Shown here one piece after another: positions 11,271-32,102 of a stretch of DNA of 64,000 nt; the stretch's first letter is position 1, and each line of letters begins with the position of its first letter. The notes under the pieces were generated by a model. The model had not been told where the DNA came from. It made no database searches and worked only from the letters and a program-made list of their open reading frames with translations. The DNA is from a virus (taxonomy: Duplodnaviria > Caudoviricetes). The stretch lies in the IMG/VR virus record IMGVR_UViG_3300048762_000252, positions 32,001 through 96,000 of that record; one strand, 5' to 3'. The position numbers and the translations under genes were made by a program.

Positions 11271-11280
11271 GTATAAATAT
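11271..11280 (+). promoter_or_regulatory. T4-type late promoter TATAAATA
   Basis: GTATAAATAT, with ATG at 11285. Confidence 0.75.
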
Positions 11281-11284
11281 CTTT

Positions 11285-12127
11285 ATGCCTGCATTTATTA
11301 ATTTAGAAGCGCATAAAGAACAGATTGTTTCGCTATATCAATCTGCGAAAGGATGTCCAGAGATTTGTCAAATCTTGCAATCGTCATTTGGGATAACTGT
11401 AAAGACATGTAAGTTATGGTCTCAACTTAAACGTTGGCAAGTTATTACTCGGTCCAGAGAGTGTCAACGATATACTATATTATCCAATGAACAAAAAGAC
11501 ATCATTGATGGAATGTTATTAGGAGACGGTTCTTTGCGTACTTATCGAAAGACACCGCAAATAGTCTTAACCAGCATTCATCGGGAATATGTTGATTTTT
11601 TAAATACTCTTCTTCCCATAAAAACACGGATAGCCGAACGACGATTAAGACAAAAAGTCATGTTTGATAATATTTCTTATGATTGTAAGCCTAGCTTTGA
11701 ATTGGTATCTGTCAGTGACAAAGTGTTGTTTGAATTTTGTAAAAGATGGCTGTATTTAAGACACAAAATAATTCCTAATGATTTGACTTTTACTCCAACA
11801 ATGATTCGCCATTGGTTTTATGGTGATGGTAGCACTTCATTTCTAAAGCGCAAAAATCGAAAAATTCAGAATTCTACTGTTCATCTTACTTTTTGCACAA
11901 ATGCTTTTACTGAAGACGAGTGTCATCAACTATGCTATCAATTTGAAAAGATAGATTCAAATCTTAAATTTTTTGTTAATCACACACAAAAAGGGCAACC
12001 GATTATCAAAACAACACGTCAAGCTGCTATTAATACGTTTTTTGATTACATAGGAGATTGTGAAATTTCGTGTTTTGATTATAAATGGAAACGTCCAATT
12101 ACTAAATACATGGTAGGTGCATCATGA
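11285..12127 (+). CDS. free-standing LAGLIDADG homing endonuclease with N-terminal HTH-like region
   Basis: IIDGMLLGDGSL and HWFYGDGST motifs; paralog of 48551-49360. Confidence 0.88.
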   Translation: MPAFINLEAHKEQIVSLYQSAKGCPEICQILQSSFGITVKTCKLWSQLKRWQVITRSRECQRYTILSNEQKDIIDGMLLGDGSLRTYRKTPQIVLTSIHREYVDFLNTLLPIKTRIAERRLRQKVMFDNISYDCKPSFELVSVSDKVLFEFCKRWLYLRHKIIPNDLTFTPTMIRHWFYGDGSTSFLKRKNRKIQNSTVHLTFCTNAFTEDECHQLCYQFEKIDSNLKFFVNHTQKGQPIIKTTRQAAINTFFDYIGDCEISCFDYKWKRPITKYMVGAS

Positions 12128-19848: not shown

Positions 19849-20070
19849 TCAGCAATGAAATAAGTAGTGCATGTGCGTTTCTGGATTTTCTTCACATGGG
19901 CAAGGGTGAGGTTGACCGCTATGAAATTGCTTGTCTTCTGAAAGCGTCCATTGGCTTGCAATGCCAGTAGGATATCTTTCATTCAACCGCTTTGTGATTT
20001 CTTCGAGCGTCAGTGATGAACATACGCTTGCGTTACAGATTCCTATGCTGTATGCTTCAAAGTCCTTCAT
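19849..20070 (-). CDS. small Cys/His hypothetical protein
   Basis: AGGAG SD before MKDFEAY; SVCS...PTGI...W...P.PC......H..F.C. Confidence 0.6.
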   Translation of the reverse strand: MKDFEAYSIGICNASVCSSLTLEEITKRLNERYPTGIASQWTLSEDKQFHSGQPHPCPCEENPETHMHYLFHC

Positions 20071-20747
20071 TTCTTTCTCCTTATTACCTTTTCTTCGGTG
20101 TGTATCTTGCACGGATAATTTAAAATGCCACCCTGTTGCGTCAAGATGCATGTTTTATCAGATTGAATGCGACGAGCTTGATACATTTCCAACGCTTCAG
20201 CAAGTTGCGACTTTGTGATATGTGGAACATTGTTGCCAAACCAAAATTCAAACACATAGCTGTCTGGTGTAGTGCATCCAGATACACGATAACTTTTTTG
20301 TTCTGGTGATGTCCACCAACCATGGAATTGGATGAGTAGGTGGATGAATAGATTGATCTGCTATAAATGCACTCGTGCGTGCGCCTACGAAGACACCAAA
20401 GACCACCAAAAATGCGACAGCGAAAAAAGATAAGAGCTTCATACTAAACGCTATAGTGTAGATTGGCCATTCTCCATCTTCCGGCTGATACAATTTGCCC
20501 TGGCCGGGCAAATTTTCAGCCTTCAAAATGGCTAAAAACGGATGGGCGGGTCGATTGGTTTAAAAATCATTTAGCCACCTTTTCCACATGCCTCTATTTG
20601 CTCTTTAGAAGCCACGTAGCCTGCTTTGGCGAGTTCAGCGTGGATAGATGGCTCCAAAACTTTCATGCCAGCCAGGAGCCTTAAAACGCCAGATACAGCT
20701 ATGCTTTTCATACTTTCAGTTTAGCAAAGATATACTTTGGTGTCAAA

Positions 20748-21347
20748 TTAGGAAACGTAAGCGGTGATTTCGTAGTGATTCGATTCCATTTTGTGCCAAG
20801 AGACGGCCATGTAGAGACCATTGCCAATATCGCACGGCGGATGCAAACGGCCATCAGGATCATTGACTTGACCGACGACAGTACGATCTTCAAATTCATG
20901 CCAATTCAAACCGCACGAAGCGATGGCATCTTGGATCATACCGAAGGCGTGAGCCTTGCCGGGATGATAGGTCTTGTTGATCGGCATCAGTAAACCATTA
21001 AGCTTGTTTTTGGCTTTTCTCTTTGTGGATGCATCCATGGTTGTGGTGTATGGATCACGATAATCATCATGCTGGCTTGATACATAAGAGACGATTTCGT
21101 ATCGACCACTCTCCATGCGCTTCCAGGTCATCGTAAAGTAGATGTCCGCACTCACTTGGGCGTGCAACCGACCTTCGTCGCCATGTACGTGGTCACGTAC
21201 TTTGCTTGGGTCCAAGTCATGTCTTACCAGCACGCCGGTAATGTCATTAAGAGGCATTCCAATATGACGTTGAAGATTGACCGATTGAAGTTCCGTATTG
21301 ATCTTGGCGGTAAGAGCTTTGGTTTCGGCTGGTGAGAATTTTTTCAT
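20748..21347 (-). CDS. late hypothetical protein with duplicated domain
   Basis: YFTMTWKRMESGRYEIVSYVS / YMAVSWHKMESNHYEITAYVS; TAAATA-N5-ATG. Confidence 0.7.
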   Translation of the reverse strand: MKKFSPAETKALTAKINTELQSVNLQRHIGMPLNDITGVLVRHDLDPSKVRDHVHGDEGRLHAQVSADIYFTMTWKRMESGRYEIVSYVSSQHDDYRDPYTTTMDASTKRKAKNKLNGLLMPINKTYHPGKAHAFGMIQDAIASCGLNWHEFEDRTVVGQVNDPDGRLHPPCDIGNGLYMAVSWHKMESNHYEITAYVS

Positions 21348-21595
21348 GAAAGTATTTATCTCTTGTGGCGGGTAATTCAAGCGGGAACGAAAACCCGGTT
21401 CCAGGATTTATCTGGACACCACACCCGCCACAAAACCTTTAACCGATTGCCCAACTTGGTCTGGTACCGTCTTGAGCAGCAAAAAGAGCTTCAGTGCGTT
21501 CCTTATACGTGGGCGCTTTGCCGGTTAGACGTTCGTACAGTCGAAGCCAGCCCTGGTATTTTTCTGCCACTCTGCCTTGAAGTTGGATAATCATG

Positions 21596-21967
21596 TTATT
21601 TTTCCGAATCTGCGTAATGCCACCCATCAACTCCAGCAACCATTGCCTTTGCCAGAAGCGATGCGCCGACACGAACTGTCGAACCAACGAAGAGAGATCT
21701 CCGTGGTGTGCCCACAATCTTGGTGATTTTCACCGTCGCCGTCGTGCGGTTGATCTTGATTACCAGCGCTTCGTATTGGACGGAATCGTAGGTGAACTTC
21801 ACCGGATCACCAGCCATGATTGCCGAAAGTGTGACCGCAGCGGCAGCTTGCCGTGTGCTGGTGGAAAGTGGCAAAGATGGATTGTATGTATTCAACGCAT
21901 TCAGTATGGCTGTGCGCTCGATAGTCGATGCCGTGGCGCAAAACGTGAGAACATCTGTGAGCGTCAT
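21596..21967 (-). CDS. hypothetical protein, SH3-like C-terminus
   Basis: GDPVKF.......V.KINRTTATV...RV.ASLL. Confidence 0.5.
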   Translation of the reverse strand: MTLTDVLTFCATASTIERTAILNALNTYNPSLPLSTSTRQAAAAVTLSAIMAGDPVKFTYDSVQYEALVIKINRTTATVKITKIVGTPRRSLFVGSTVRVGASLLAKAMVAGVDGWHYADSEK

Positions 21968-22311
21968 TTCAGCCCCTTGAGTTTGGCAACAACATCTTCT
22001 GGCAGATTGTACTTTATCACACTTCTCATCCAATCTCGATGCCCATCCCATGTCTGTGTCATATTTTCAATCCTTCAATCCAGTACCAGTTCTTCACGAA
22101 AATGCCAGATAGCGGTGGCCGCAGCGAAGTCCAGATGATGCCATTGGCGTATGCAACGGGTGGCTTCCACAGCGTTTAATACTGGACCGTTGTAGAAAGT
22201 TTCTCCATCCCAGGACATTTCCATTTGTCCGTTCGCAACTACGACTTGAAGTTTCGTTCCATTCATGACTTAAGAATAACATAATCTCGACTAGAATGTC
22301 AATAGGTACAT

Positions 22312-22593
22312 CTAATGAATTTCCATGCGGCGTTCCATTTCGATGTATCGTTTGTAATCTTCCGGCGACACTCGTTCTTTGCCTGTACCGTTGCACGCTC
22401 CACACTTCGGTTGGCGACCATGACGATCCGTATTGTCGTATAAGCCACCGCCGCCGCAAGCGAAGCAAGGAATGGACTTCCAGCCTTCAACGAATCGCTT
22501 GTAATAGGCAGTGCGGGCGGCTTTGCGGGATTTATAATCGTCAGCGGCCAGCACAGCCATACGCAGTCGAGACTCTTCTTGATAATCGTTCAT
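22312..22593 (-). CDS. small DnaJ-type Zn-finger protein
   Basis: CFACGGGG...CGACNGTG; leaderless behind a sigma70-type promoter. Confidence 0.65.
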   Translation of the reverse strand: MNDYQEESRLRMAVLAADDYKSRKAARTAYYKRFVEGWKSIPCFACGGGGLYDNTDRHGRQPKCGACNGTGKERVSPEDYKRYIEMERRMEIH

Positions 22594-22599
22594 GATTTG

Positions 22600-22628
22600 A
22601 GCATATCACAAACAGAGCCGAAAGTCAA
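22600..22628 (-). promoter_or_regulatory. sigma70-type early promoter
   Basis: TTGACT-17-TATGCT, ATG 6 nt downstream. Confidence 0.65.
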
Positions 22629-22642
22629 GAAAGATGTATCAA

Positions 22643-22921
22643 TTATTTTGGTCCGAAAACTCGTCCCAATTCCAAGTTCCATGCTTCTTTAAATTCGGGG
22701 GTTTTGTACAGATCGGTTAAAGCGGTTCGTTCAGGACGTGGCAATACCAAAATCCAATCGGCTGGAAATTTGTCACCATCCACGAATTTCCCGTGCGCCG
22801 GGTCATGCTCTTCTTGAATCCGGCCACATATAGCGCAGCCTTCGCCTGTGTACGTGCGATGCAATGTGTATGGATGATTGTCGATCTTTCGGTACTCTTC
22901 ATCCGTGAGCTTCATCTTCAT
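22643..22921 (-). CDS. hypothetical protein
   Basis: ORF downstream of promoter 22973-23001. Confidence 0.5.
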   Translation of the reverse strand: MKMKLTDEEYRKIDNHPYTLHRTYTGEGCAICGRIQEEHDPAHGKFVDGDKFPADWILVLPRPERTALTDLYKTPEFKEAWNLELGRVFGPK

Positions 22922-22972
22922 ATGGGGCGGCTGGTTCCGCTAACCCAACCGCCCTTTTGCCTTTTTGATTTT

Positions 22973-23001
22973 ATTGTAGCATGAAAGCATTACGGTGTCA
23001 A
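22973..23001 (-). promoter_or_regulatory. sigma70-type early promoter
   Basis: TTGACA-17-TACAAT with extended TG. Confidence 0.7.
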
Positions 23002-23013
23002 TAGATGTAGAAA

Positions 23014-23090
23014 TGGAGGGCCTGAAGAGACTTGAACTCTCATTGTCCATTTACGGTATTTCGTTTAGGAAACGAAGCCGGTACAGGCCC
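23014..23090 (-). tRNA. non-canonical tRNA-Arg(CCT) lacking a D-arm
   Basis: acceptor GGGCCTG/CAGGCCC-TCCA, anticodon arm TTCGT-TTCCTAA-ACGAA, T arm GAGAG-TTCAAGT-CTCTT. Confidence 0.75.
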
Positions 23091-23567
23091 CTTCAATACC
23101 CCTGCATGTACTGCACCATGACAATTGTGACAGAGAAGTACGCAACTGTGTAGTTCCTGCTTTATACGCAGCTTCGACCAACCTCGCATGTGCGTAAAAT
23201 TAGGATCTTTCTGAGCGGGATCTGTATGATGAACGGCTAAGGAACACTGAAATTTTTTGTACCCGCAGATACGGCATTTTCCACCTAGAAAGTCTCGTGC
23301 AAATTGTTTTCGCCCTTCACATCGTGTCTTGTTGTAAGTAGCGTGACAAACCATGCACATTGAACGCATCTTGCCATAAAAGCAAGAAGGGTTTTCTTCT
23401 TCACATTGAACACAGAAAAAAGCAGAGACATAGCCGATGGGTCTGGTCCGGTGCAAACCGAAGGGAGAGCATTTAAGGCAATAACGACGTGCGCTAAGAT
23501 TCCTTTTCTTACCAAACACAAATACAAAATTGGGAAAGCAACTTCCACAGTTGTCACAGATCGGCAT
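23040..23567 (-). CDS. tRNA-associated HNH endonuclease
   Basis: GGKC.ICGY......L.VHH.DP..KD...E...C.LLCHNCH..VH. Confidence 0.85.
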   Translation of the reverse strand: MPICDNCGSCFPNFVFVFGKKRNLSARRYCLKCSPFGLHRTRPIGYVSAFFCVQCEEENPSCFYGKMRSMCMVCHATYNKTRCEGRKQFARDFLGGKCRICGYKKFQCSLAVHHTDPAQKDPNFTHMRGWSKLRIKQELHSCVLLCHNCHGAVHAGVLKGPVPASFPKRNTVNGQ

Positions 23568-23586
23568 AGTTCACTCTTCGTAAAAT

Positions 23587-23665
23587 TGGTATCCCTGACT
23601 GGACTCGAACCAGCATTGATCCATTTACTCGGCTACGCATTAGAAGTGCGTTGAGATACAGGGAC
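23587..23665 (-). tRNA. non-canonical tRNA-Arg(TCT) lacking a D-arm
   Basis: GTCCCTG/CAGGGAT-ACCA, ACGCA-CTTCTAA-TGCGT, GCTGG-TTCGAGT-CCAGT. Confidence 0.75.
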
Positions 23666-23671
23666 ATAACT

Positions 23672-23746
23672 TGGTAGACCCGGCAGAATTCGAATCTGCA
23701 TTTTAGCGTTCGGGGCGCTATATCCTTTCCGTTGGATGACGGGTCC
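23672..23746 (-). tRNA. tRNA-Arg(CCG)
   Basis: cloverleaf; TAGCG-CCCCGAA-CGCTA; CCA end. Confidence 0.88.
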
Positions 23747-23752
23747 AAAACT

Positions 23753-23857
23753 TGGTGGAGTGAACGGGAATCGAACCCGCCATCTCTGGCCGAGAATGCC
23801 ACTTTCGCTCGGTGCCAACCGATCCCAACCGCCGATGGCTGGACACGTTTTCACCCC
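23753..23857 (-). ncRNA. 105-nt tRNA-like RNA with Ala identity (G3:U70, A73) and atypical body
   Basis: GGGGTGA/TCACTCC-ACCA acceptor, GCGGG-TTCGATT-CCCGT T arm, three internal hairpins. Confidence 0.7.
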
Positions 23858-23863
23858 AAAACT

Positions 23864-23939
23864 TGGTGGACCGGGTGGGAATCGAACCCACAACTTCTTG
23901 ATTAAGAATCAAGTACTCTGCCAATTGAGTTACCAGTCC
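23864..23939 (-). tRNA. tRNA-Lys(CTT)
   Basis: cloverleaf; CTTGA-TTCTTAA-TCAAG; CCA. Confidence 0.93.
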
Positions 23940-24172
23940 AAAACTTGTTTGCCTTCTACATTTGCCGTAACATTCCAATCCGGCAAACCATTATTCACAC
24001 CAGCTTGTTTAGCTTTGTGCTTCATCTGGAGCGATACTTCGCTCATTTTCAGCACTGGCTTCACTTGCGGTTCTCTTGCAACTGCTCTACAATCTTCTTC
24101 CAGGCATACGTTGATGTACCCTGGATGGTTTCGGGCGGGAGTAAATTCCTCGCCGCAAATTCTACAAATCAT
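23930..24172 (-). CDS. small Zn-finger protein inside the tRNA cluster
   Basis: MICRICGEEF...C....C with AAGGA SD. Confidence 0.6.
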   Translation of the reverse strand: MICRICGEEFTPARNHPGYINVCLEEDCRAVAREPQVKPVLKMSEVSLQMKHKAKQAGVNNGLPDWNVTANVEGKQVLDW

Positions 24173-24240
24173 TTTCTTTTCCTTCTGCCGCTCCCGGCTA
24201 AATTCACGGTCACTCAACAGCGACAGCGAAAAACTAAACT

Positions 24241-24314
24241 TGGTAGCCATCCACAGAGTTGAACTGCGATTCTCTGCATGTCATACAGGCGTCCTACCAT
24301 TGGACGAGACGGCC
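24241..24314 (-). tRNA. tRNA-Val(GAC)
   Basis: GGCCGTC/GATGGCT-ACCA; CTGT-ATGACAT-GCAG anticodon arm. Confidence 0.8.
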
Positions 24315-24359
24315 ACTTTAAACTCAAACCTACAAAATGCACTAATCATAAATATATTT

Positions 24360-25085
24360 ATGACTTTACTAAAAGAACAAATTCTAAACTTGAGATCAAA
24401 AGGTTATTCATACAACCGCATTCAAAAACAACTTAAATGTTCTAAAGGAACAATATCCTTTCATTGTGGGAAAGGACAAAGAGATAAAACAAATATTCGT
24501 TGTCAAATAAATCGAAAAAAGAATCCCACATTTACATGTACTCATTGCGGGATTGCCTTTCATCGAAAAAAGAGAAGCTCTATTTTTCCAAACAATCCTT
24601 TTTGCTCAGTTGATTGTTTTCGTAATCATCAACAATCTAAATGGAAATGTAAAAAGTGCAATGTTCAAATCAATAAAAGACGATCATATTGCAATCAATG
24701 TCGGAAAAAATACATACGACCACGAGTTGTATCACCATACACATCAACGAAAAGGCACCGTCAACGCATCAAAGAACGGGCCGTAGAATATAAAGGCGGC
24801 AGTTGCGTCGTTTGCGGATATAATCGTTGTCTTCGATCTCTTGAATTTCATCATATAGATCCTAACCAAAAAGATTTCACTATTTCACAAGGTTCTCATC
24901 GATCTTGGAACGATATAATTTCTGAATTAGATAAGTGTATTCTTATCTGCTCCAATTGTCATTGTGAAGTTCATGATGGTATGATTTCAATAGATGATTT
25001 GGTAGTCCCGGCTGGATTTGAACCAGCGACCTCCGGTTTCGTAGACCGGCATTCTGAATCCGCTGAACTACGGGACCACATTTAA
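24360..25085 (+). CDS. HNH endonuclease with HTH and Zn fingers, antisense to tRNA cluster
   Basis: KGGSC..CGYNRC..SLEFHHIDP..KDF...ELDKCILICSNCH.EVH; TAAATA-N5-ATG. Confidence 0.88.
   Translation: MTLLKEQILNLRSKGYSYNRIQKQLKCSKGTISFHCGKGQRDKTNIRCQINRKKNPTFTCTHCGIAFHRKKRSSIFPNNPFCSVDCFRNHQQSKWKCKKCNVQINKRRSYCNQCRKKYIRPRVVSPYTSTKRHRQRIKERAVEYKGGSCVVCGYNRCLRSLEFHHIDPNQKDFTISQGSHRSWNDIISELDKCILICSNCHCEVHDGMISIDDLVVPAGFEPATSGFVDRHSESAELRDHI
25000..25077 (-). tRNA. tRNA-Arg(ACG)
   Basis: CCGGT-CTACGAA-ACCGG; CCA. Confidence 0.93.
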
Positions 25086-25103
25086 AATAAATTTTCAAAG
25101 AAC

Positions 25104-25179
25104 TGGTTGGCGTGGATGAATTTGCATCATCACTCTCCATCTTATCAGGATGGCGCTTCACTATTTAAGCCACACGCCA
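25104..25179 (-). tRNA. tRNA-Ile(GAT)
   Basis: CCATC-CTGATAA-GATGG; T loop TGCAAAT; CCA. Confidence 0.85.
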
Positions 25180-25217
25180 GTAAAACTTTTCTCAATTAAT
25201 TTTTGTGCTGAAATTTT

Positions 25218-25293
25218 TGGTGGGTCTGACGGGCAACGATCCCGCAACTTCTTGGTTAAAGGCCAAGTACTCTGCCAATTGAGTTACAGACCC
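25218..25293 (-). tRNA. tRNA-Lys(TTT)
   Basis: CTTGG-CCTTTAA-CCAAG; T loop ATCGTTG; CCA. Confidence 0.9.
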
Positions 25294-25355
25294 AAGAATT
25301 GAATCTGCGATAGCAGCCAGCCACACACACAGCACAACGAATGCAATAGCGGGCG

Positions 25356-25406
25356 CTATCGCTTTCGTTTACTAATGCTCCTGACTCTAATTCGTGTGCG
25401 TGTCAT
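25356..25406 (-). CDS. putative leader peptide MTRTRIRVRSISKRKR of the tRNA operon
   Basis: 16 codons plus TAG between late promoter and first tRNA; codons match downstream anticodons. Confidence 0.6.
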   Translation of the reverse strand: MTRTRIRVRSISKRKR

Positions 25407-25427
25407 AGTCTTTGCCTTGCCTTTTCG

Positions 25428-25435
25428 TATTTATA
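25428..25435 (-). promoter_or_regulatory. late promoter for the tRNA operon
   Basis: perfect TATAAATA on the - strand, 135 nt upstream of tRNA-Lys. Confidence 0.75.
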
Positions 25436-25546
25436 CGCCGTGAGAGGGCAGACTACCCCACGGCACTACTTAATGCGCCCTACCAAGGTTTCGGTGACCT
25501 TGATTCATCAGCGGTGAACTGTTGCGTTTCACCAGCTTCATTTACT

Positions 25547-25954
25547 ACTTTACCACTGTTCTCTGAACTTGTCAAGATCTAAAATAGCCATGATAACTCG
25601 CCTTGCGGCGCAAAGTGTTATCCAAGGTACGATCTTTCAACCGCACAATCATCATGGCTCCTGGTTCGATGTTTCCATCAACCATCTTCTTTACTCTACC
25701 ACGGATATTAAATCCTGTCAAGTCCTATGTTTGGCCGATGTGGTGTACGACGCATCGGCCAACAATTTGAACGGGAACCTCAAATGAGCGGCAGCGACCT
25801 CACACACCGTTCGTTGCGTGACCGCATCATTCGACTCGGCTTGACCGCCCCGCATTACCGGGTAGAGCCGATTCACCATCAGCGGCGTTTACCTTGCGAT
25901 CTGGAAAACCGGATGGCTCAATTTCAATATAACACAAAGCCGGAATGCTGTCAA
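25547..25954 (-). promoter_or_regulatory. three tandem sigma70-type promoters
   Basis: TTGACA-17-(TG)TAAAGT 25547-25575; TTGACA-17-(TG)TAGAGT 25693-25721; TTGACA-17-(TG)TATATT 25926-25954. Confidence 0.65.
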
Positions 25955-25992
25955 GTCGGCTTATGAAGATATTCATAATCTAAATATAGCCT

Positions 25993-26402
25993 ATGATTTG
26001 TAACACATGCAAAAAGCCACTTGTTGGGCATCAAACAAAATACTGTTCAGTACGATGCAAAACACCGATACCAATCAAAAACACAATAATTATCAAGCGC
26101 AGAAGAAGCGTGCTCTCCTTAGAAAAATTGAATTTGTTCGTATGCTAGGAGGCAAGTGCGCCGTTTGTGGATATCAAAAAAATTTAGCAGCACTCACTTT
26201 TCACCACAATGATCCAAATCTCAAAGAGTTTGAATTTGATCGAAGAGTACTGTCAAATTTTAATTCTGAACGACTGTTATTAGAGATCCAAAAATGCACG
26301 TTACTTTGTTCTAATTGTCATGCTGAACATCACAATTCAGATAAAGAATTTTGGTGGGTCTCTTCCACGTCGTCTCGCACAAAAACATCTGTACGCTTGT
26401 AG
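25993..26402 (+). pseudogene. frameshifted HNH endonuclease of the tRNA-associated family
   Basis: MICNTCKK...KYCSVRCK from ATG 25993 is out of frame with the HNH domain; one A missing at 26059-26062. Confidence 0.7.
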
Positions 26403-26563
26403 ACGGCATGAATGATCTTTGGTCTTTTTGCCAAGTCGCCATCATAAGGGCATTCATAATCGCACAGGCCGTTCTCGATTACATAACCACATTCACCACA
26501 TACATCAACTACGAATTCTCGTTCTGTAACTTGTCCTGGAGTTGGTCTCGGTATCGGTATCAT
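26330..26563 (-). CDS. small Cys-rich hypothetical protein
   Basis: CGECG...CDYECP; coupled to upstream ORF. Confidence 0.5.
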   Translation of the reverse strand: MIPIPRPTPGQVTEREFVVDVCGECGYVIENGLCDYECPYDGDLAKRPKIIHAVYKRTDVFVRDDVEETHQNSLSEL

Positions 26564-26958
26564 AGTTTCACCAATTCTTTATTATACTCCACGCACCCGG
26601 CGCAAAGCAACATCAAGCTGTAAGTCCGGGCTTTACCGCTCTTTTTGATTTCTGTGAGCGTTACCGGCTCTTTTTCTCCGCACAGTTCACAAGGTTCAAC
26701 TTCTTCTAAAATCAACCGTGGGCAAAGCTCATGAAATTGTGCTGTGCATTTTGTGACGTAGCCCATAACACTAAGAATTATTTGTCGTGGCGCTGGTGGA
26801 ACGAACGCCACGATACGATAATCTTCTGGTACCAAAAGCTCTTCGAGAGGCATTCGGTACATGTCCCAAACTGTGATGCCGTTATAGTTCATTGCTGGTA
26901 ATTTCATCCAGCATAATAGCATACAATTCGGTTTTTGACAAATCCTGGTACTTGTCAC
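26560..26958 (-). CDS. hypothetical protein
   Basis: ORF with CELC...CAGC. Confidence 0.5.
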   Translation of the reverse strand: MTSTRICQKPNCMLLCWMKLPAMNYNGITVWDMYRMPLEELLVPEDYRIVAFVPPAPRQIILSVMGYVTKCTAQFHELCPRLILEEVEPCELCGEKEPVTLTEIKKSGKARTYSLMLLCAGCVEYNKELVKL

Positions 26959-27466
26959 GCCGTTTTTTGTTTCCGTACAACACCGAGATGATTCGATTAG
27001 AAATCCGATCCGCCAAATTCTTTTCCGCTTCCGTTGCTTCTCTCATAATTTTTTACCATTTAAGTTCTTAGCTACCCGCTGCACAAGTTTTCGATCTTCG
27101 TTCGTTCTTTTTCGAAATGCTACGTTCGTCCAATATTTTGGATAAAACCAAATCCACCAACTGAGTTTGTCTTTTGCTCTATGATAAAAACATGTTGTCT
27201 TGGGTGTACATCGACACGGATATAGGAAGAACCCAATGCGGAGTTTCCAATCGTAATACCCTCTTAACAATCGTTTCCTATCTTGTTTCATAAATCAATT
27301 AGATGAAAAGCAATCATACAAGGGCCAACAGCGATTCCCCAAATACGGATACGCCGTCCGTTGACATTGCTACAGTAGGAATTTCTAGTTCCTCTGTAAA
27401 ACTTTGGTCTGTGTGAAAGAATGGTCTTTATGTATCTCCACATTCAAAGTCTCCAAGCGCCGCTTT

Positions 27467-27829
27467 TCAATCATTCATACGAAAAATCATTTCTGAAATC
27501 AAGAAAATCAAAAATGCAAGTTGTTTGGCATCATTTGGTGTTGAAGTCTCCCGCATCATGCGCTCTTTATACTCAAATATTTGTTTATATTGATCACGCA
27601 CGGCATTTACCTTTGCCACACTTTCAACGTCCTGGCTTTCAACCACTGTTGATGCTTCGCTCGATTTGAATTGTTCGATGTTATCGAGACAAAAGCGAAC
27701 TGCTCGTCTGATGAACTCCGATCTATTTAATTCCGGGAGTTGTTCTTTGATTACTTGATCCATCGCCGCAGTTAGCGTGGATGAAAGCCTCAATAATATC
27801 TTATCGTCTTGTATTTTTTGTCCAGCCAT
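27467..27829 (-). CDS. ribbon-helix-helix (CopG-like) DNA-binding protein
   Basis: ILLRLS..L..AMD.......LNRSEFIRRAV; GAGGT SD. Confidence 0.7.
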   Translation of the reverse strand: MAGQKIQDDKILLRLSSTLTAAMDQVIKEQLPELNRSEFIRRAVRFCLDNIEQFKSSEASTVVESQDVESVAKVNAVRDQYKQIFEYKERMMRETSTPNDAKQLAFLIFLISEMIFRMND

Positions 27830-28155
27830 AATACCTCTAGTTGTTTAATCTAGTGGTATATATCACGGCTATTTTCCGATATGTCTATGAAAACCTTCCA
27901 TCATCACGACAAAGAGACAACCGGCTAATAATCCTGCAATAAGTGATTTGATTAGCTCCATTTTATCCTGCGTCATACATTCTGATGTAAGTGCCGCAAT
28001 CGGCGCAATGCACATCACCGTCTCGCCACATTTCATCATAGTTTCTCACTTCATAATTCCTGCTGCCACACTTCGGGCAAGCTTTGTAATCGTTCACTGC
28101 ATGTCCAATCGAACCGTCGTCTTTCATCTAATTGTCTCCGTGCATAAATATCTTT

Positions 28156-28542
28156 ATGAACTGCATCATGTGTCAATGCTCATTTGACTTTAAAAAAGAC
28201 AAAAAATTTTGTTCTCTTAAATGTAAGAATAAGTTTCATGGAAACTCTGAATTTCAAATTCAACGTGGACTGAAAAGAAAAATCAAATACATTAACGAAC
28301 GAGGCGGCGGATGTCAAAAATGTGGATATAATAGAAATTATGCAGCATTATGTTTTCATCACCGAGATCCTACATTAAAAATATTTGAAGTTGAATTGAA
28401 TAAAATTTCATGCCTTTCTCAAGAAAGAGTTAACGCCGAAGTCCAAAAATGTGATATTCTTTGCCATAATTGTCATATAGAAACACATTTTCCAAAGTAT
28501 ATGGTACCCGGCCATGGAATCGAACCATGTTCTAGTCGATAA
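28156..28542 (+). CDS. tRNA-associated HNH endonuclease (antisense)
   Basis: GGGCQKCGYNRNYAALCFHHRDP..K.F...EVQKCDILCHNCH.E.H; TAAATA-N5-ATG. Confidence 0.88.
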   Translation: MNCIMCQCSFDFKKDKKFCSLKCKNKFHGNSEFQIQRGLKRKIKYINERGGGCQKCGYNRNYAALCFHHRDPTLKIFEVELNKISCLSQERVNAEVQKCDILCHNCHIETHFPKYMVPGHGIEPCSSR

Positions 28543-28593
28543 TCTGTCGAGACCGCTTATAGGGCGGCTTGAGAAACCATCCTCCCACCGGGC
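28502..28593 (-). tRNA. tRNA with TAT anticodon (Ile AUA) and long variable arm
   Basis: GCCCGGT/GCCGGGT-ACCA; GCCGC-CCTATAA-GCGGT; TCGA..TCGA variable stem; CATGG-TTCGATT-CCATG. Confidence 0.8.
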
Positions 28594-28598
28594 ACAAG

Positions 28599-28829
28599 TT
28601 ATTCACCGATGGTCAGTGATATGAGATGTTGCCGTCGTTCACGTTTGATGAGCGGCAGGATGCTGTACGAAAACAAGGCGCTGGCGAAGTTGGTAATGGC
28701 AGAGATGCCACCGACCATAACGCCAAACAGATCGTTAGTGAGGAAGGCCCACGCAAACAAAGCTACGCAAATAACGCCCAGGAAGGCGTTAAAGCGGTAG
28801 TCGAATTGTGGAAGCCGGTTCATATTCAT
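28599..28829 (-). CDS. small membrane protein (2 TM)
   Basis: two hydrophobic stretches; sigma70-type promoter at 28831-28859. Confidence 0.55.
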   Translation of the reverse strand: MNMNRLPQFDYRFNAFLGVICVALFAWAFLTNDLFGVMVGGISAITNFASALFSYSILPLIKRERRQHLISLTIGE

Positions 28830-29040
28830 TAGTGTACCATAAGATATTTAGTTCGTCAATATGTTCCGTCCAGCATCGATGGATCGTAACTGCCATCTGG
28901 TTCTTGCTCGATTGACAATCCTTTTTCTTTGTATTCTTGGATACGGCGTTGATACTCCGCTTTATGCTGTTCGTATTCTTCTTCGTTTTTTGCGTTTAAT
29001 GCGGCCAAATATGGCGTGCCGATATAAGTTCCCATCAATC

Positions 29041-29631
29041 TCATTTTGATTCTACCGGACAGCCAAGACAATATACTTTGGACGGCGTACTTAGCTTTAC
29101 ATTTAGTTCTTGTCGCAATCGCATAAGTAATTTACCAAGCATATTTTGTCCTGGTTTATTCTTACATCCTTGACATTTACAATCTCCATAAAAATTGTCG
29201 TGCCAAGAGTTAGATTCAATTAACATTGCATCGCCGGTATCGAGAAGCTTCTGTAATATGCCCCAATTCTGCGTAAATTTCGCTTTCAGGATATCGTACA
29301 TAATGTCCAGTTTGGTTTCTTCCCAATCTGGACGCAGTGTGACGCAGGACCCGGCTGTTTTGGCTTGTCCTGGAGTGGTAGGCATCTCACCGCCAGTTTC
29401 AAATACATACACCAGAACAGTTTTTTGTTCTACTGGATCGTCCGTTTTGGCCCATTGATAAGCGTGCTCCGATGTGGAGAATTTTTTGTTTCTCCATGTA
29501 AGAGGACTGATGTAGAAATTGCTTAGAAAGTCGTATTCATTTCGGAACGCATCAATAAAGACCTCTCCGAAGGAATTAGTGTGTTCGACAGGAAGGCTTG
29601 TCTGAAGATGTGGTTGCGGCTGCTGTTGCAT
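29041..29631 (-). CDS. NADAR (YbiA-like) family protein
   Basis: LSNFY, SEHAYQ.AK, R.DWE..K..IM...L.AKF.Q, L..TG...LIE....D.F.G, G.N.LG.LLM.LR. Confidence 0.93.
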   Translation of the reverse strand: MQQQPQPHLQTSLPVEHTNSFGEVFIDAFRNEYDFLSNFYISPLTWRNKKFSTSEHAYQWAKTDDPVEQKTVLVYVFETGGEMPTTPGQAKTAGSCVTLRPDWEETKLDIMYDILKAKFTQNWGILQKLLDTGDAMLIESNSWHDNFYGDCKCQGCKNKPGQNMLGKLLMRLRQELNVKLSTPSKVYCLGCPVESK

Positions 29632-29688
29632 GAAGTAAGTATACCATGTGTTTTTATTTCGTCAATACATCGCTTTTTGCAAGATTTT

Positions 29689-30543
29689 TCAGGCTTTTTG
29701 CTCGCCGCTTTTCCAACTGCGCCAACATGATACGCAATTGGGAATAAAGACTTTCGACATGCGAAGGCGAGTCTCTTCAAGCTCTTCAAATTTCCACGAC
29801 AAAAAACCCATTGGCCAAGCTCCAAAATTACAATATGTAACTGCCCCGTTTTCGAGTACAGTCATTGATTGGTTGCTTTGGTGTGCATGACAATATGCGC
29901 CAAACATGCGGAGCATATCATCTCCAAGTTCGTTGTTGTAAGCACGTCCAACCGGAGCCACGGCCCGTTCTTCCTCTTTCGGATCTTTGGTCGCAGTGAA
30001 CCCCCAATCCTCTTTGAAACCTGGATTCTGTGATTCAAGCCATGCAAAGGCACGATCACCAACACCAGCCGGATGAAAACGATCTCGACTGATGCCAATG
30101 TAAATCGGAGGTCCAGACGAAGAGAGTTTACGAACTGTTGCCAAAAATTTCTGTCTTGGTTGCTCAAGAGTCACCCACCAGCCATTCGTTACGATACGAA
30201 GAGGAACAAAGTGCATCGCTTCGAGCAAATCGGGGTAGTTTGGAATAGTGGTTATCTCGCCGCCCATTACATTAAGCCAACTGACATGACCTTCAAAACA
30301 AGTGCGAACCTGTCTGGCAATTTCTACGGTCATTCGTTCATGCCGTTTTGGTCCGCATTCAAAACAACAATGGGCGCATTGATAGGGGCACTTAGTTGTC
30401 AGCCGTACCGTAATTACACGTCCCTTTGGCGGTGCGGTCAATTCAGACGACATAACCGGCTCGATGTCCTTTCCATAAACGGCTTTGTACCGGGCGACAA
30501 CTTCTTTCCAATCTTCCGGTGTAGCGCAACGAGTGCTTGCCAT
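29689..30543 (-). CDS. radical SAM protein
   Basis: LTTKCPYQCAHC (CxxxCxxC), MGGE, TNG. Confidence 0.9.
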   Translation of the reverse strand: MASTRCATPEDWKEVVARYKAVYGKDIEPVMSSELTAPPKGRVITVRLTTKCPYQCAHCCFECGPKRHERMTVEIARQVRTCFEGHVSWLNVMGGEITTIPNYPDLLEAMHFVPLRIVTNGWWVTLEQPRQKFLATVRKLSSSGPPIYIGISRDRFHPAGVGDRAFAWLESQNPGFKEDWGFTATKDPKEEERAVAPVGRAYNNELGDDMLRMFGAYCHAHQSNQSMTVLENGAVTYCNFGAWPMGFLSWKFEELEETRLRMSKVFIPNCVSCWRSWKSGEQKA

Positions 30544-31032
30544 GATGATCTCGACATCATTGATGTCAACCAGACCAGATTATCGCTCACACAAAACGAC
30601 ACGCTAAGGCCGATGCGATATGGATTTATTGTCTGCTTTAAAAATACCGGTTATTCTGCCGCCAGTTGTTGTAGTAGGCAACTCGATTCAATAAAGTTGC
30701 CATGTTGTCAGAAATAGCCCAAATAATTACAACCACATCCCGGCCAAGCCAAATCTGCCAATGATCTTTTTCGTTGACCTTAATGACTCGAATGCGGATA
30801 GCCCGTTGCTTTTCACGAAAAAGAGCTTTCTTCGTCATTTCTAGATTTTCATCGTTTGTAGACATTATTCAGTTCCTTCGACTTCCCGATCAAATTTATT
30901 CAGACAGTCGTTAGCGTCAGCGCCATGCTCTTCAAACAACTCATGGACGCTATCGCCCATTTCACAAAAAAGAAGCGCTCTGAGAGCTTTGATTTCACCT
31001 GGAGTCAAATTGAGTTCGTTTGCCATGATTTA

Positions 31033-31155
31033 TTATTGCATAGATGCATCTGCTTTGTCAATAGATGCTTCTAAATAATTTGCAGCCGCCCGAAGAAGAG
31101 TTGGATTGTCCTCAAATTTGCCAATAGAAAGATTGCAACGGTCGCAGAGCAAACC
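31033..31155 (-). pseudogene. C-terminal remnant of an Endo VII-family endonuclease
   Basis: GLLCDRCNLSIGKFEDNPTLLRAAANYLE with no start; matches ends of 2523-2954 and 46505-46930. Confidence 0.8.
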
Positions 31156-31156
31156 A

Positions 31157-31636
31157 CTAAATCCTTGATAAGCAATCACTTCCGTAGCCCGATAAAATCG
31201 ATTCTGGAACAGTCAACATTCGTCCGCAGCGTCCGCACTTACCAGCGTGCCAAACTTCCATTCTCGGTGTGTCCAGGCCAGCGTTGATGTGAGTAAAGGC
31301 CCAATTAAAACCAGCCACCGGAGCGGAATCCATCGTCAATTTCGATGCACGGGTGGTGAAAAATGTGAAACCGCTTGTGGTAGCCTTGATCTGGCCGATG
31401 TAGCTGTAATTCACCCAATTGTCAGGGCCGGTCAGATAGCTTACCATCCAAGACTCGCCGTATTTCTCGCTGGCGGGTTTGTGGGTCACTTTGAAAGTAT
31501 ACCGAGTGCCGCTTTTCAATGAGACCAGCGTGAAGATTGCCTTGCCAGCCAGCATGAAATTCTTGGCAGCGGCAGGAGATGCCAGCTTTGCAGCGGCGTG
31601 TACGGTGGCTTCGTTGCTTTCGATGTCGTTAAGCAT
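31157..31636 (-). CDS. conserved phage protein with C-terminal Zn finger (DUF6011-like)
   Basis: FTL.S..SG.RYT.KV...WH.GKCGRCGR.LT.PESI..G.G..C. Confidence 0.7.
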   Translation of the reverse strand: MLNDIESNEATVHAAAKLASPAAAKNFMLAGKAIFTLVSLKSGTRYTFKVTHKPASEKYGESWMVSYLTGPDNWVNYSYIGQIKATTSGFTFFTTRASKLTMDSAPVAGFNWAFTHINAGLDTPRMEVWHAGKCGRCGRMLTVPESILSGYGSDCLSRI

Positions 31637-31703
31637 GATCCAAGAATAGCACAAAGACATCGAAAACGCAATAGATACACCTAAAAATTATGGTCCTTTA
31701 GAA

Positions 31704-32102
31704 TCAATAATTTGGATGGTTGCCATGTGAGTGCCCGGTTTCGGCAATATAGTCGGCTTCTTGAGACTCCATAAAAGCCATGTCATTGCTCTTCAGAAGC
31801 TCACCAGTCAATTCCTGGGTGGCATAGGCTACGATGCCTTCACCGTCCGCTTCAAGGGCGTAGGCAGCTTCTAATGCGAAATATAGAGGTTTGGTAAAGG
31901 TGACCGGCGCAAGCCATTCTGTAGCACCATTGTCGCCAGGAACTTCTTTCCAGCCAAGATGGAGTAAAAAGGTCTTCTTTGCAATGAATACCAAAAGGTT
32001 CAAGGCATCAATTTCGTAATCGTTAATGGGCATCAATTTGGATGAATCATTTACATCCAAGATAATGGTTTCTACTAATTCGATTGCGTCAGGCATTGTC
32101 AT
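31704..32102 (-). CDS. hypothetical protein
   Basis: co-oriented ORF with SD. Confidence 0.5.
   Translation of the reverse strand: MTMPDAIELVETIILDVNDSSKLMPINDYEIDALNLLVFIAKKTFLLHLGWKEVPGDNGATEWLAPVTFTKPLYFALEAAYALEADGEGIVAYATQELTGELLKSNDMAFMESQEADYIAETGHSHGNHPNY

Follow-up and report, generated by a model that had tools for sequence, protein, structure and literature searches.

The window, by which we mean the whole stretch of 64,000 nucleotides that was analysed, corresponds to bases 32001-96000 of one phage contig, which is 166,602 bp long. The scaffold and major head proteins of this phage gave matches to T4-type families, and its head protein is ~60% identical to the head proteins of pelagiphage and cyanophage myoviruses, with no close relative of the phage found among GenBank phages. 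On the minus strand of the window, an array of tRNA genes opening with tRNA-Lys(UUU), which starts at 25293, is preceded by a leader that contains a short open reading frame (ORF), a T4-type late promoter motif and several overlapping helices (H1-H4). From the farthest upstream promoters to the end of the array, the features are the following.

25954-25926 and 25721-25693, minus strand: two further sigma-70-like promoters, in tandem upstream of the next one
25547-25575, minus strand: sigma-70-like early promoter (TTGACA, 17 nt, TAAAGT), the nearest of the three in tandem
25437-25464, minus strand: stem-loop abutting the late promoter, predicted from the sequence for early-promoter transcripts only
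25428-25435, minus strand: T4-type late promoter motif TATAAATA, invariant in all seven known leaders
25415-25418, minus strand: weak Shine-Dalgarno-like AAGG, 8 nt before the ATG
25356-25406, minus strand: leader ORF, ending in TAG, whose 16 codons comprise after Met 6 Arg, 2 Lys, 2 Ile, 1 Val, 2 Thr and 2 Ser
25394-25403, minus strand: 5' arm of H1 (codons 2-4) from folding, the extended form of which begins 3 nt before the ATG
25355-25362, minus strand: shared strand b, GCGATAGC, running from the last Arg codon through the stop codon to the base after it
25337-25350, minus strand: 3' side of H2, consisting of GCTATTGC, the proximal partner of b, and an extension that pairs with 25368-25364
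25322-25330, minus strand: 3' arm of H1 (GU tract), from folding
25307-25318, minus strand: 3' arm of H3, with which b pairs distally: GCTATCGC plus GGC, its end 12 nt short of the tRNA
25301-25308, minus strand: H4, a conserved leader segment complementary to nt 1-8 of tRNA-Lys, just past the distal arm
25218-25293, minus strand: tRNA-Lys(UUU), gene 1 of the array (ARAGORN, Rfam)
23017-25179, minus strand: remainder of the tRNA array (ARAGORN, Rfam), interrupted by HNH endonuclease genes

The genes of the array follow each other on the minus strand in the order Lys(UUU), Ile(GAU), Arg(ACG), an opposite-strand HNH gene, Val(GAC) and Lys(CUU), and then a 105-nt tRNA-like element, Arg(CCG), Arg(UCU), a second HNH gene and Arg(CCU). 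Six of the eight array tRNAs were called by ARAGORN. Arg(UCU) (23665-23590, 36.9 bits) and Arg(CCU) (23090-23017, 35.4 bits), both non-canonical, were found by Rfam only, for which the gathering score is 29. The 105-nt element (23753-23857, minus strand) lies in register within the array and has tRNA-like acceptor and T arms without a normal D or anticodon arm; it was missed by ARAGORN and gave a weak tRNA-Sec-like Rfam match of 18 bits. Four HNH endonuclease paralogues are located in or beside the tRNA genes (23040-23567 on the minus strand; 24358-25085, 26007-26402 and 28132-28542 on the plus strand), and two of the four run antisense into a tRNA 3' end. Another tRNA, 92 nt long with a UAU anticodon and a long variable arm, is encoded 3 kb upstream of the leader (28502-28593, minus strand), directly after a small membrane-protein gene. 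Its position is kept in three relatives (L006, L007 and L014) and it has no leader cassette.

The motif TATAAATA occurs 20 times in the genome. Since 16 of the 20 copies lie at most 25 nt upstream of a same-strand ORF of at least 70 codons, head genes included, the motif can reasonably be read as a T4-type late promoter, and we infer that it is used as one. The initial annotation of this locus had placed the motif at 25435-25428 and the ORF at 25406-25356, and every coordinate proved right: the ATG stands at 25406, the TAG at 25358-25356, and the product has 16 residues. A sigma-70-like promoter was found 30-140 nt upstream of TATAAATA in each of the six leaders examined in this respect (that of the window, L001, L006, L007, L014 and L016), so the ORF would head early as well as late transcripts. 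A stem was seen at the position matching that of the upstream stem-loop in the printed upstream sequences of L001, L006 and L007, as judged by eye without folding. Each of the two farther promoters, 25954-25926 and 25721-25693, is followed by 100-200 nt without a conserved ORF, and the equivalent regions of the relatives differ in sequence.

Elsewhere in this genome, at least seven TATAAATA motifs have the ATG of an ORF of at least 238 codons only 5-7 nt further on. One example lies in the window at 11272-11287 on the plus strand, and further short-spaced pairs were found outside it at genome positions 26472, 122779, 152054, 154997 and 162649. This spacing suggests leaderless or near-leaderless late mRNAs in the phage. 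Another recurring module consists of TATAAATA, a short A-rich spacer and a strong stem-loop (39499-39450 on the minus strand of the window; genome positions 16390, 139809 and 127449, all on the plus strand), and may represent a late promoter with a 5' stabilising hairpin.

Relatives of the leader were sought by anchoring on neighbouring conserved proteins and by leader patterns, and six further versions were obtained from public contigs (L001, L006, L007, L014, L016 and L104). All seven leaders share one layout, which begins with TATAAATA and continues through 16-21 nt with a GAG or AAGG to an ATG, 13-15 sense codons ending in Lys-Arg-Lys-Arg, a TAG or TAA stop codon, 55-79 nt of leader RNA and tRNA-Lys(UUU). 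The ORFs are 14, 15 or 16 codons long, so that their differences are multiples of three. The five terminal codons, Lys-Arg-Lys-Arg-stop, change at third positions only, and one Arg position alternates between the synonymous AGG and CGG. The leader ORF is also the sole closed ATG ORF of at least 8 codons common to the seven sequences. As a reading frame it is conserved in seven phages. The GAG of the relatives lies at -10 to -13, the zone in which Shine-Dalgarno-like motifs peak before the long ORFs of the window genome; together, the conserved frame and the Shine-Dalgarno-like motif support translation of the ORF without proving it.

Other searches extended the family no further. An exact 20-mer of the hairpin had no match in IMG/VR, a search with a 26-mer of tRNA-Lys returned only one unrelated array (L003), which has no leader, and a metagenome scan returned only a 1.2-kb contig. 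Beyond the known members, pattern scans gave chance matches only (L008, L011-L013, L020-L101). Several short Logan or JGI contigs (L015, L017-L019, L103 and L105) stop before the leader.

In the folded leader RNA, the region of the start codon and the GU tract are the two sides of H1, inside which lies H2, the hairpin formed by strand b and its proximal arm and reaching into the Lys-Arg codons. Strand b is the 5' arm of both H2 and H3. The distal arm of H3 ends 12-17 nt before tRNA-Lys across the seven leaders, and the energy of this helix is -23.7 to -26.6 kcal/mol in all of them. H1 and H3 cross, with their 3' arms 0-4 nt apart or overlapping, and are therefore mutually exclusive. The hairpin at the stop codon, its perfect alternative partner close ahead of the tRNA and the helix joining codons 2-4 to the GU tract, all three pointed out in the initial annotation, were recovered by folding; the start and stop codons do lie inside mutually exclusive helices. 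A pseudoknot holding H1 and H3 together was also considered and was ruled out by the linker of only 0-4 nt.

Covariation was assessed by swapping helix arms among the seven phages and comparing the energies obtained with own and with swapped partners over 5040 permutations. Own partners were favoured for H2 (4/5040) and for H3 (11/5040); both helices co-vary. In L007, for instance, an A-to-G change is compensated by T-to-C, and L001 has a matched A/T insertion. For H1 the same test across the seven phages was not significant (1818/5040), and the case for this helix is made by its conservation and by one divergent pair of arms, that of L007, in which the sequences differ and pairing is kept. 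The complementarity of H4 to the first tRNA exceeded that of 90-100% of shuffles in all six leaders tested, which was rarely so for other tRNAs.

The leader folds have z-scores of -1.3 to -3.0. Between the two states, H1 with H2 (state A) and H3 (state B), the energy gap varies from -2.2 to +6.8 kcal/mol across leaders, and state A is favoured by 6-7 kcal/mol in the window and in L001. When codons 1-9 were masked, as by a ribosome footprint, the fold moved to H3 in four of six leaders; when the end of the ORF was masked, H1 alone remained. In four leaders the codon stretch for Arg-Ile-x-Ile-Arg coincides with a small palindromic hairpin.

The codons of the ORF match the array that it precedes. 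As the initial annotation had stated, 11 of the 15 sense codons of the leader are readable by array tRNAs, through seven of the eight anticodons. By the number of array-matched codons, the leader ORF ranks first among 1251 short ATG ORFs genome-wide, and 11 matches were reached by none of the 45,072 fifteen-codon windows taken from 164 long ORFs. Array-cognate codons make up 73% of the leader versus a background of 21% in the long ORFs of the phage. The match is not due to chance. A further claim, that the synonymous Arg codons are sampled separately, did not hold: four distinct codons among six Arg codons is what the codon usage of the genome leads one to expect (P = 0.64).

L007 comes from the record designated G001, a contig of 405,631 bp on which 42 tRNA hits fall into several blocks. 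The blocks are sorted by amino-acid class (Pro/Leu/Ser; Asp/Thr/Glu/Gln/His; Thr; Asn; Trp; Arg/Lys/Ile/Val), and most of them have their own promoter and short ORF, with L106, L107, L108 and L110 as further loci of this contig. At several blocks a sigma-70-like -35 box is fused to TATAAATA, which would then act as the -10 element. Five tRNA singletons or pairs have no cassette.

Besides the Arg/Lys/Ile/Val array, five other tRNA blocks of G001 have a promoter and a short ORF directly upstream, giving six cassettes in total before different arrays. The ORFs were chosen by a simple rule applied by eye. An ORF of 31 codons, in which 22 of the 30 residues after Met are Leu, Ser or Pro, precedes the Pro/Leu/Ser block; one of 15 codons, with seven Thr encoded by all four Thr codons, precedes two tRNA-Thr genes; and one of 8 codons with Thr, Gln and Asp precedes the Asp/Thr/Glu/Gln/His block. 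Weaker cassettes lie before tRNA-Trp and tRNA-Asn, where the Trp and Asn matches add little. The true assignment of leaders to arrays was the best of the 720 permutations at both the amino-acid and the codon level. That leader codons should track array anticodons thus holds inside G001 (1/720), but not among the seven Arg/Lys/Ile leaders, whose arrays differ little: the use of CGG does not follow the position of tRNA-Arg(CCG), in a comparison to which the nearly identical arrays lend little power.

Several G001 cassette ORFs begin with Met-Thr-Arg-Thr. This start appears to be generic, and because it is common to several cassettes it would account for the two unmatched Thr codons of the window leader. 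In several cassettes of G001 the ATG lies 5-8 nt after the promoter motif, a spacing like that of the at least seven other TATAAATA-ORF pairs in the window genome. A degenerate pattern for the Thr-rich sister leader matched only a protein C-terminus.

As the initial annotation had said, there is no poly-U terminator in the leader. H2 and H3 are followed by mixed tails, U/G or C/U/A, in which 9 nt contain 3-6 U and no U run, and the phage's own terminators, for example that after the head gene, are canonical and have U-tracts. A generic terminator scan flagged H2, but such matches were no commoner than in shuffled sequences. H2 was rejected as an intrinsic terminator on account of its poor tail, the non-specificity of the scan and the fact that H3 would form too late to act as an antiterminator. 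Downstream of the stop codon the window leader is structured, with 15 C to 17 G, and becomes G-poor only in the last 13 nt before the tRNA; as this RNA is not both C-rich and G-poor, a Rho loading site is not evident. Past the hairpin, some of the sister cassettes are rich in C and poor in G. A search of 20000-32000 against Rfam at E <= 1 found no T-box, only tRNAs and chance matches.

The leader combines a short 5' ORF, translatable as judged from its sequence, an enrichment in codons cognate to the tRNAs that follow it and mutually exclusive helices overlapping the ORF, and has no intrinsic terminator among its alternative structures. The term attenuator, under which the locus was first described, is borne out as far as the conserved ORF, the exclusive helices H1 and H3 and the covariation of H2 and H3 are concerned, but does not apply in the classical sense. 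Since no terminator-type U-tract is present, the leader is not a classical attenuator.

We favour the interpretation, with a probability of roughly 0.55, that the tRNA-array transcript begins with a translated leader of regulatory function, one of a family of codon-matched cassettes in a T4-like phage lineage. The leader probably lets ribosomes report tRNA supply. Transcripts would start at the late promoter and also at the upstream early promoters, and the ribosome would then read 14-16 codons; for ~70% of these, the tRNAs required (Arg, Lys, Ile and Val) are encoded in the array that follows. In state A, strand b would pair locally in H2, nested in H1, which would cover the start codon; in state B, it would pair with the distal arm 12-17 nt before tRNA-Lys to form H3. 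The position at which the ribosome dwells on array-cognate codons would select between the two states. A ribosome on the first half of the ORF would remove H1 and favour H3, and one on Lys-Arg-Lys-Arg or on the stop codon would block both H2 and H3. It is a weakness of this scheme that the first and the second half of the ORF each contain Arg codons, at which pauses would push the fold in opposite directions depending on the half; the Lys codons are found only beside the stop.

Because a terminator is absent, the likeliest candidates for the output are access of Rho and, at the first tRNA, the processing or the stability of the precursor, and we make no choice among these. In its full form, the proposal is that this phage lineage runs ribosome-read 'tRNA supply meters', with each tRNA block headed by a mini-gene written in its own codons, where slow decoding would flip a terminator-less switch and yield more of those tRNAs through Rho access or precursor processing. 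We hold this full form tentatively, at somewhat below even odds. The initial annotation had proposed a similar scheme, in which ribosome stalling on depleted or cleaved host tRNAs switches on the replacement tRNAs. This interpretation is supported in part: the reading frame, the helices and the tracking in G001 speak for it, whereas the missing terminator, the sampling of Arg synonyms and the lack of fine tracking among the seven leaders do not. Its link to anticodon-nuclease defences is speculative.

It is conceivable that the ORF is translated for a general purpose, such as protection of the 5' end, exclusion of Rho or a single remodelling of the leader per transcript, without any measurement of tRNA supply, and that the codon match arises since the phage writes the ORF in codons that it can supply. 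Conservation of the ORF and of the two-state fold would be expected here as well, no terminator or other identifiable output element was found, and the distance of 5-8 nt between promoter and ATG in G001 equals that of ordinary TATAAATA-ORF pairs, of which the window genome has at least seven others. We nevertheless consider this unlikely, since it fails to predict peptides rich in Leu/Ser/Pro, in Thr or in Arg/Lys/Ile before just the matching blocks (1/720), or a share of array-cognate codons in the leader (73%) so unlike that of the long ORFs (21%).

The same sister cassettes bear on whether the product itself matters, as an arginine-rich RNA-binding micropeptide acting on the adjacent hairpin or on the tRNAs, with the folds merely controlling its synthesis. 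In E. coli, the tpr ORF lies downstream of tRNAs, and we know of no switch and no function for it. This small protamine-like ORF in the tyrT tRNA transcript (PMC3141248) resembles the leader ORF in being small, very basic and co-transcribed with tRNA genes, and is a precedent for such a micropeptide. The leader peptide is highly basic and well conserved, and its C-terminal Lys-Arg-Lys-Arg is invariant; the peptides encoded at the same position in G001, however, are non-basic and of very different composition, 14-16 residues are very few for a folded function, and covariation of the helices offers an explanation of the wobble-only variation too. A function of the peptide thus seems quite improbable to us. 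That covariation, strong in H2 and H3, would also suit a non-coding structured RNA with an incidental frame, serving as a processing signal for RNase III or RNase E or as a small stable RNA of the kind carried by the T4 tRNA cluster. The fold z-scores and the coincidence of the Arg-Ile-x-Ile-Arg pattern with a palindromic hairpin in four leaders point the same way. An incidental frame, however, would hardly keep its ATG invariant and its stop as TAG or TAA, change its length in threes, exchange AGG for the synonymous CGG and remain the only conserved ORF, and the agreement between codon composition and arrays in G001 would be left without a reason. We give it the lowest odds of all.

Regulation of this kind by a translated leader has several relatives among known systems. 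The thr, ilvGMEDA, his and trp operons of enterobacteria are controlled by multivalent leader-peptide transcription attenuators, with which the phage leader shares a short ORF rich in product-relevant codons and overlapping, mutually exclusive helices. In these attenuators the position of the ribosome picks the fold, as we propose here, and the Thr-rich cassette of G001 resembles thrL in composition. In contrast to them, the genes to be regulated are phage tRNA genes and not biosynthetic enzymes, and the leader has no hairpin followed by a U-tract; its shared strand carries the stop codon instead. The pheST operon, which encodes the Phe-tRNA synthetase of E. coli, is controlled by leader-peptide attenuation with an intrinsic terminator. 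There too a component of the translation apparatus is governed by the decoding of cognate leader codons, but the regulated gene is a synthetase, whereas the phage leader precedes tRNAs and shows no such terminator. In tnaC, the ribosome stalls in response to the peptide together with free tryptophan and covers a C-rich site of Rho loading, so that a ribosome at the end of the leader ORF governs the RNA past the stop codon without an intrinsic terminator, as it may in the phage; the tnaC site is C-rich, whereas the post-stop RNA of the phage leader is not.

Within T4 itself, the ribosome-binding sites of gene e, soc and I-TevI, all of them normal protein genes, are hidden by a hairpin. The likeness to the leader lies in the T4-type phage, in TATAAATA beside a stem-loop and in early and late transcripts with different 5' ends. 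In the 97 nt that precede tRNA-Gln, the T4 tRNA cluster lacks any such leader ORF. Full-text searches of the literature yielded no account of a leader peptide ahead of phage tRNA genes.

Very little has been described of the control that phages exert over their tRNA genes, and feedback logic of this sort has so far been reported for operons of amino-acid biosynthesis and of synthetases. If a leader ORF senses the decoding of the codons that its array serves, the tRNA genes would come under direct feedback control, and, with no terminator present, the output step would be a new one as well. The proposed RNA switch is well defined and can be mutated, and seven natural variants of it exist, which opens the idea to direct testing. 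Why phages carry tRNA genes is debated between codon compensation and escape from tRNA-cleaving defences (PMC10264068, PMC11464382, PMC11555353), and phage tRNAs as counter-defence are established background. If the proposal is true in its full form, the leader would place a feedback loop on the tRNA genes themselves, able to answer depletion of host tRNAs of any cause.
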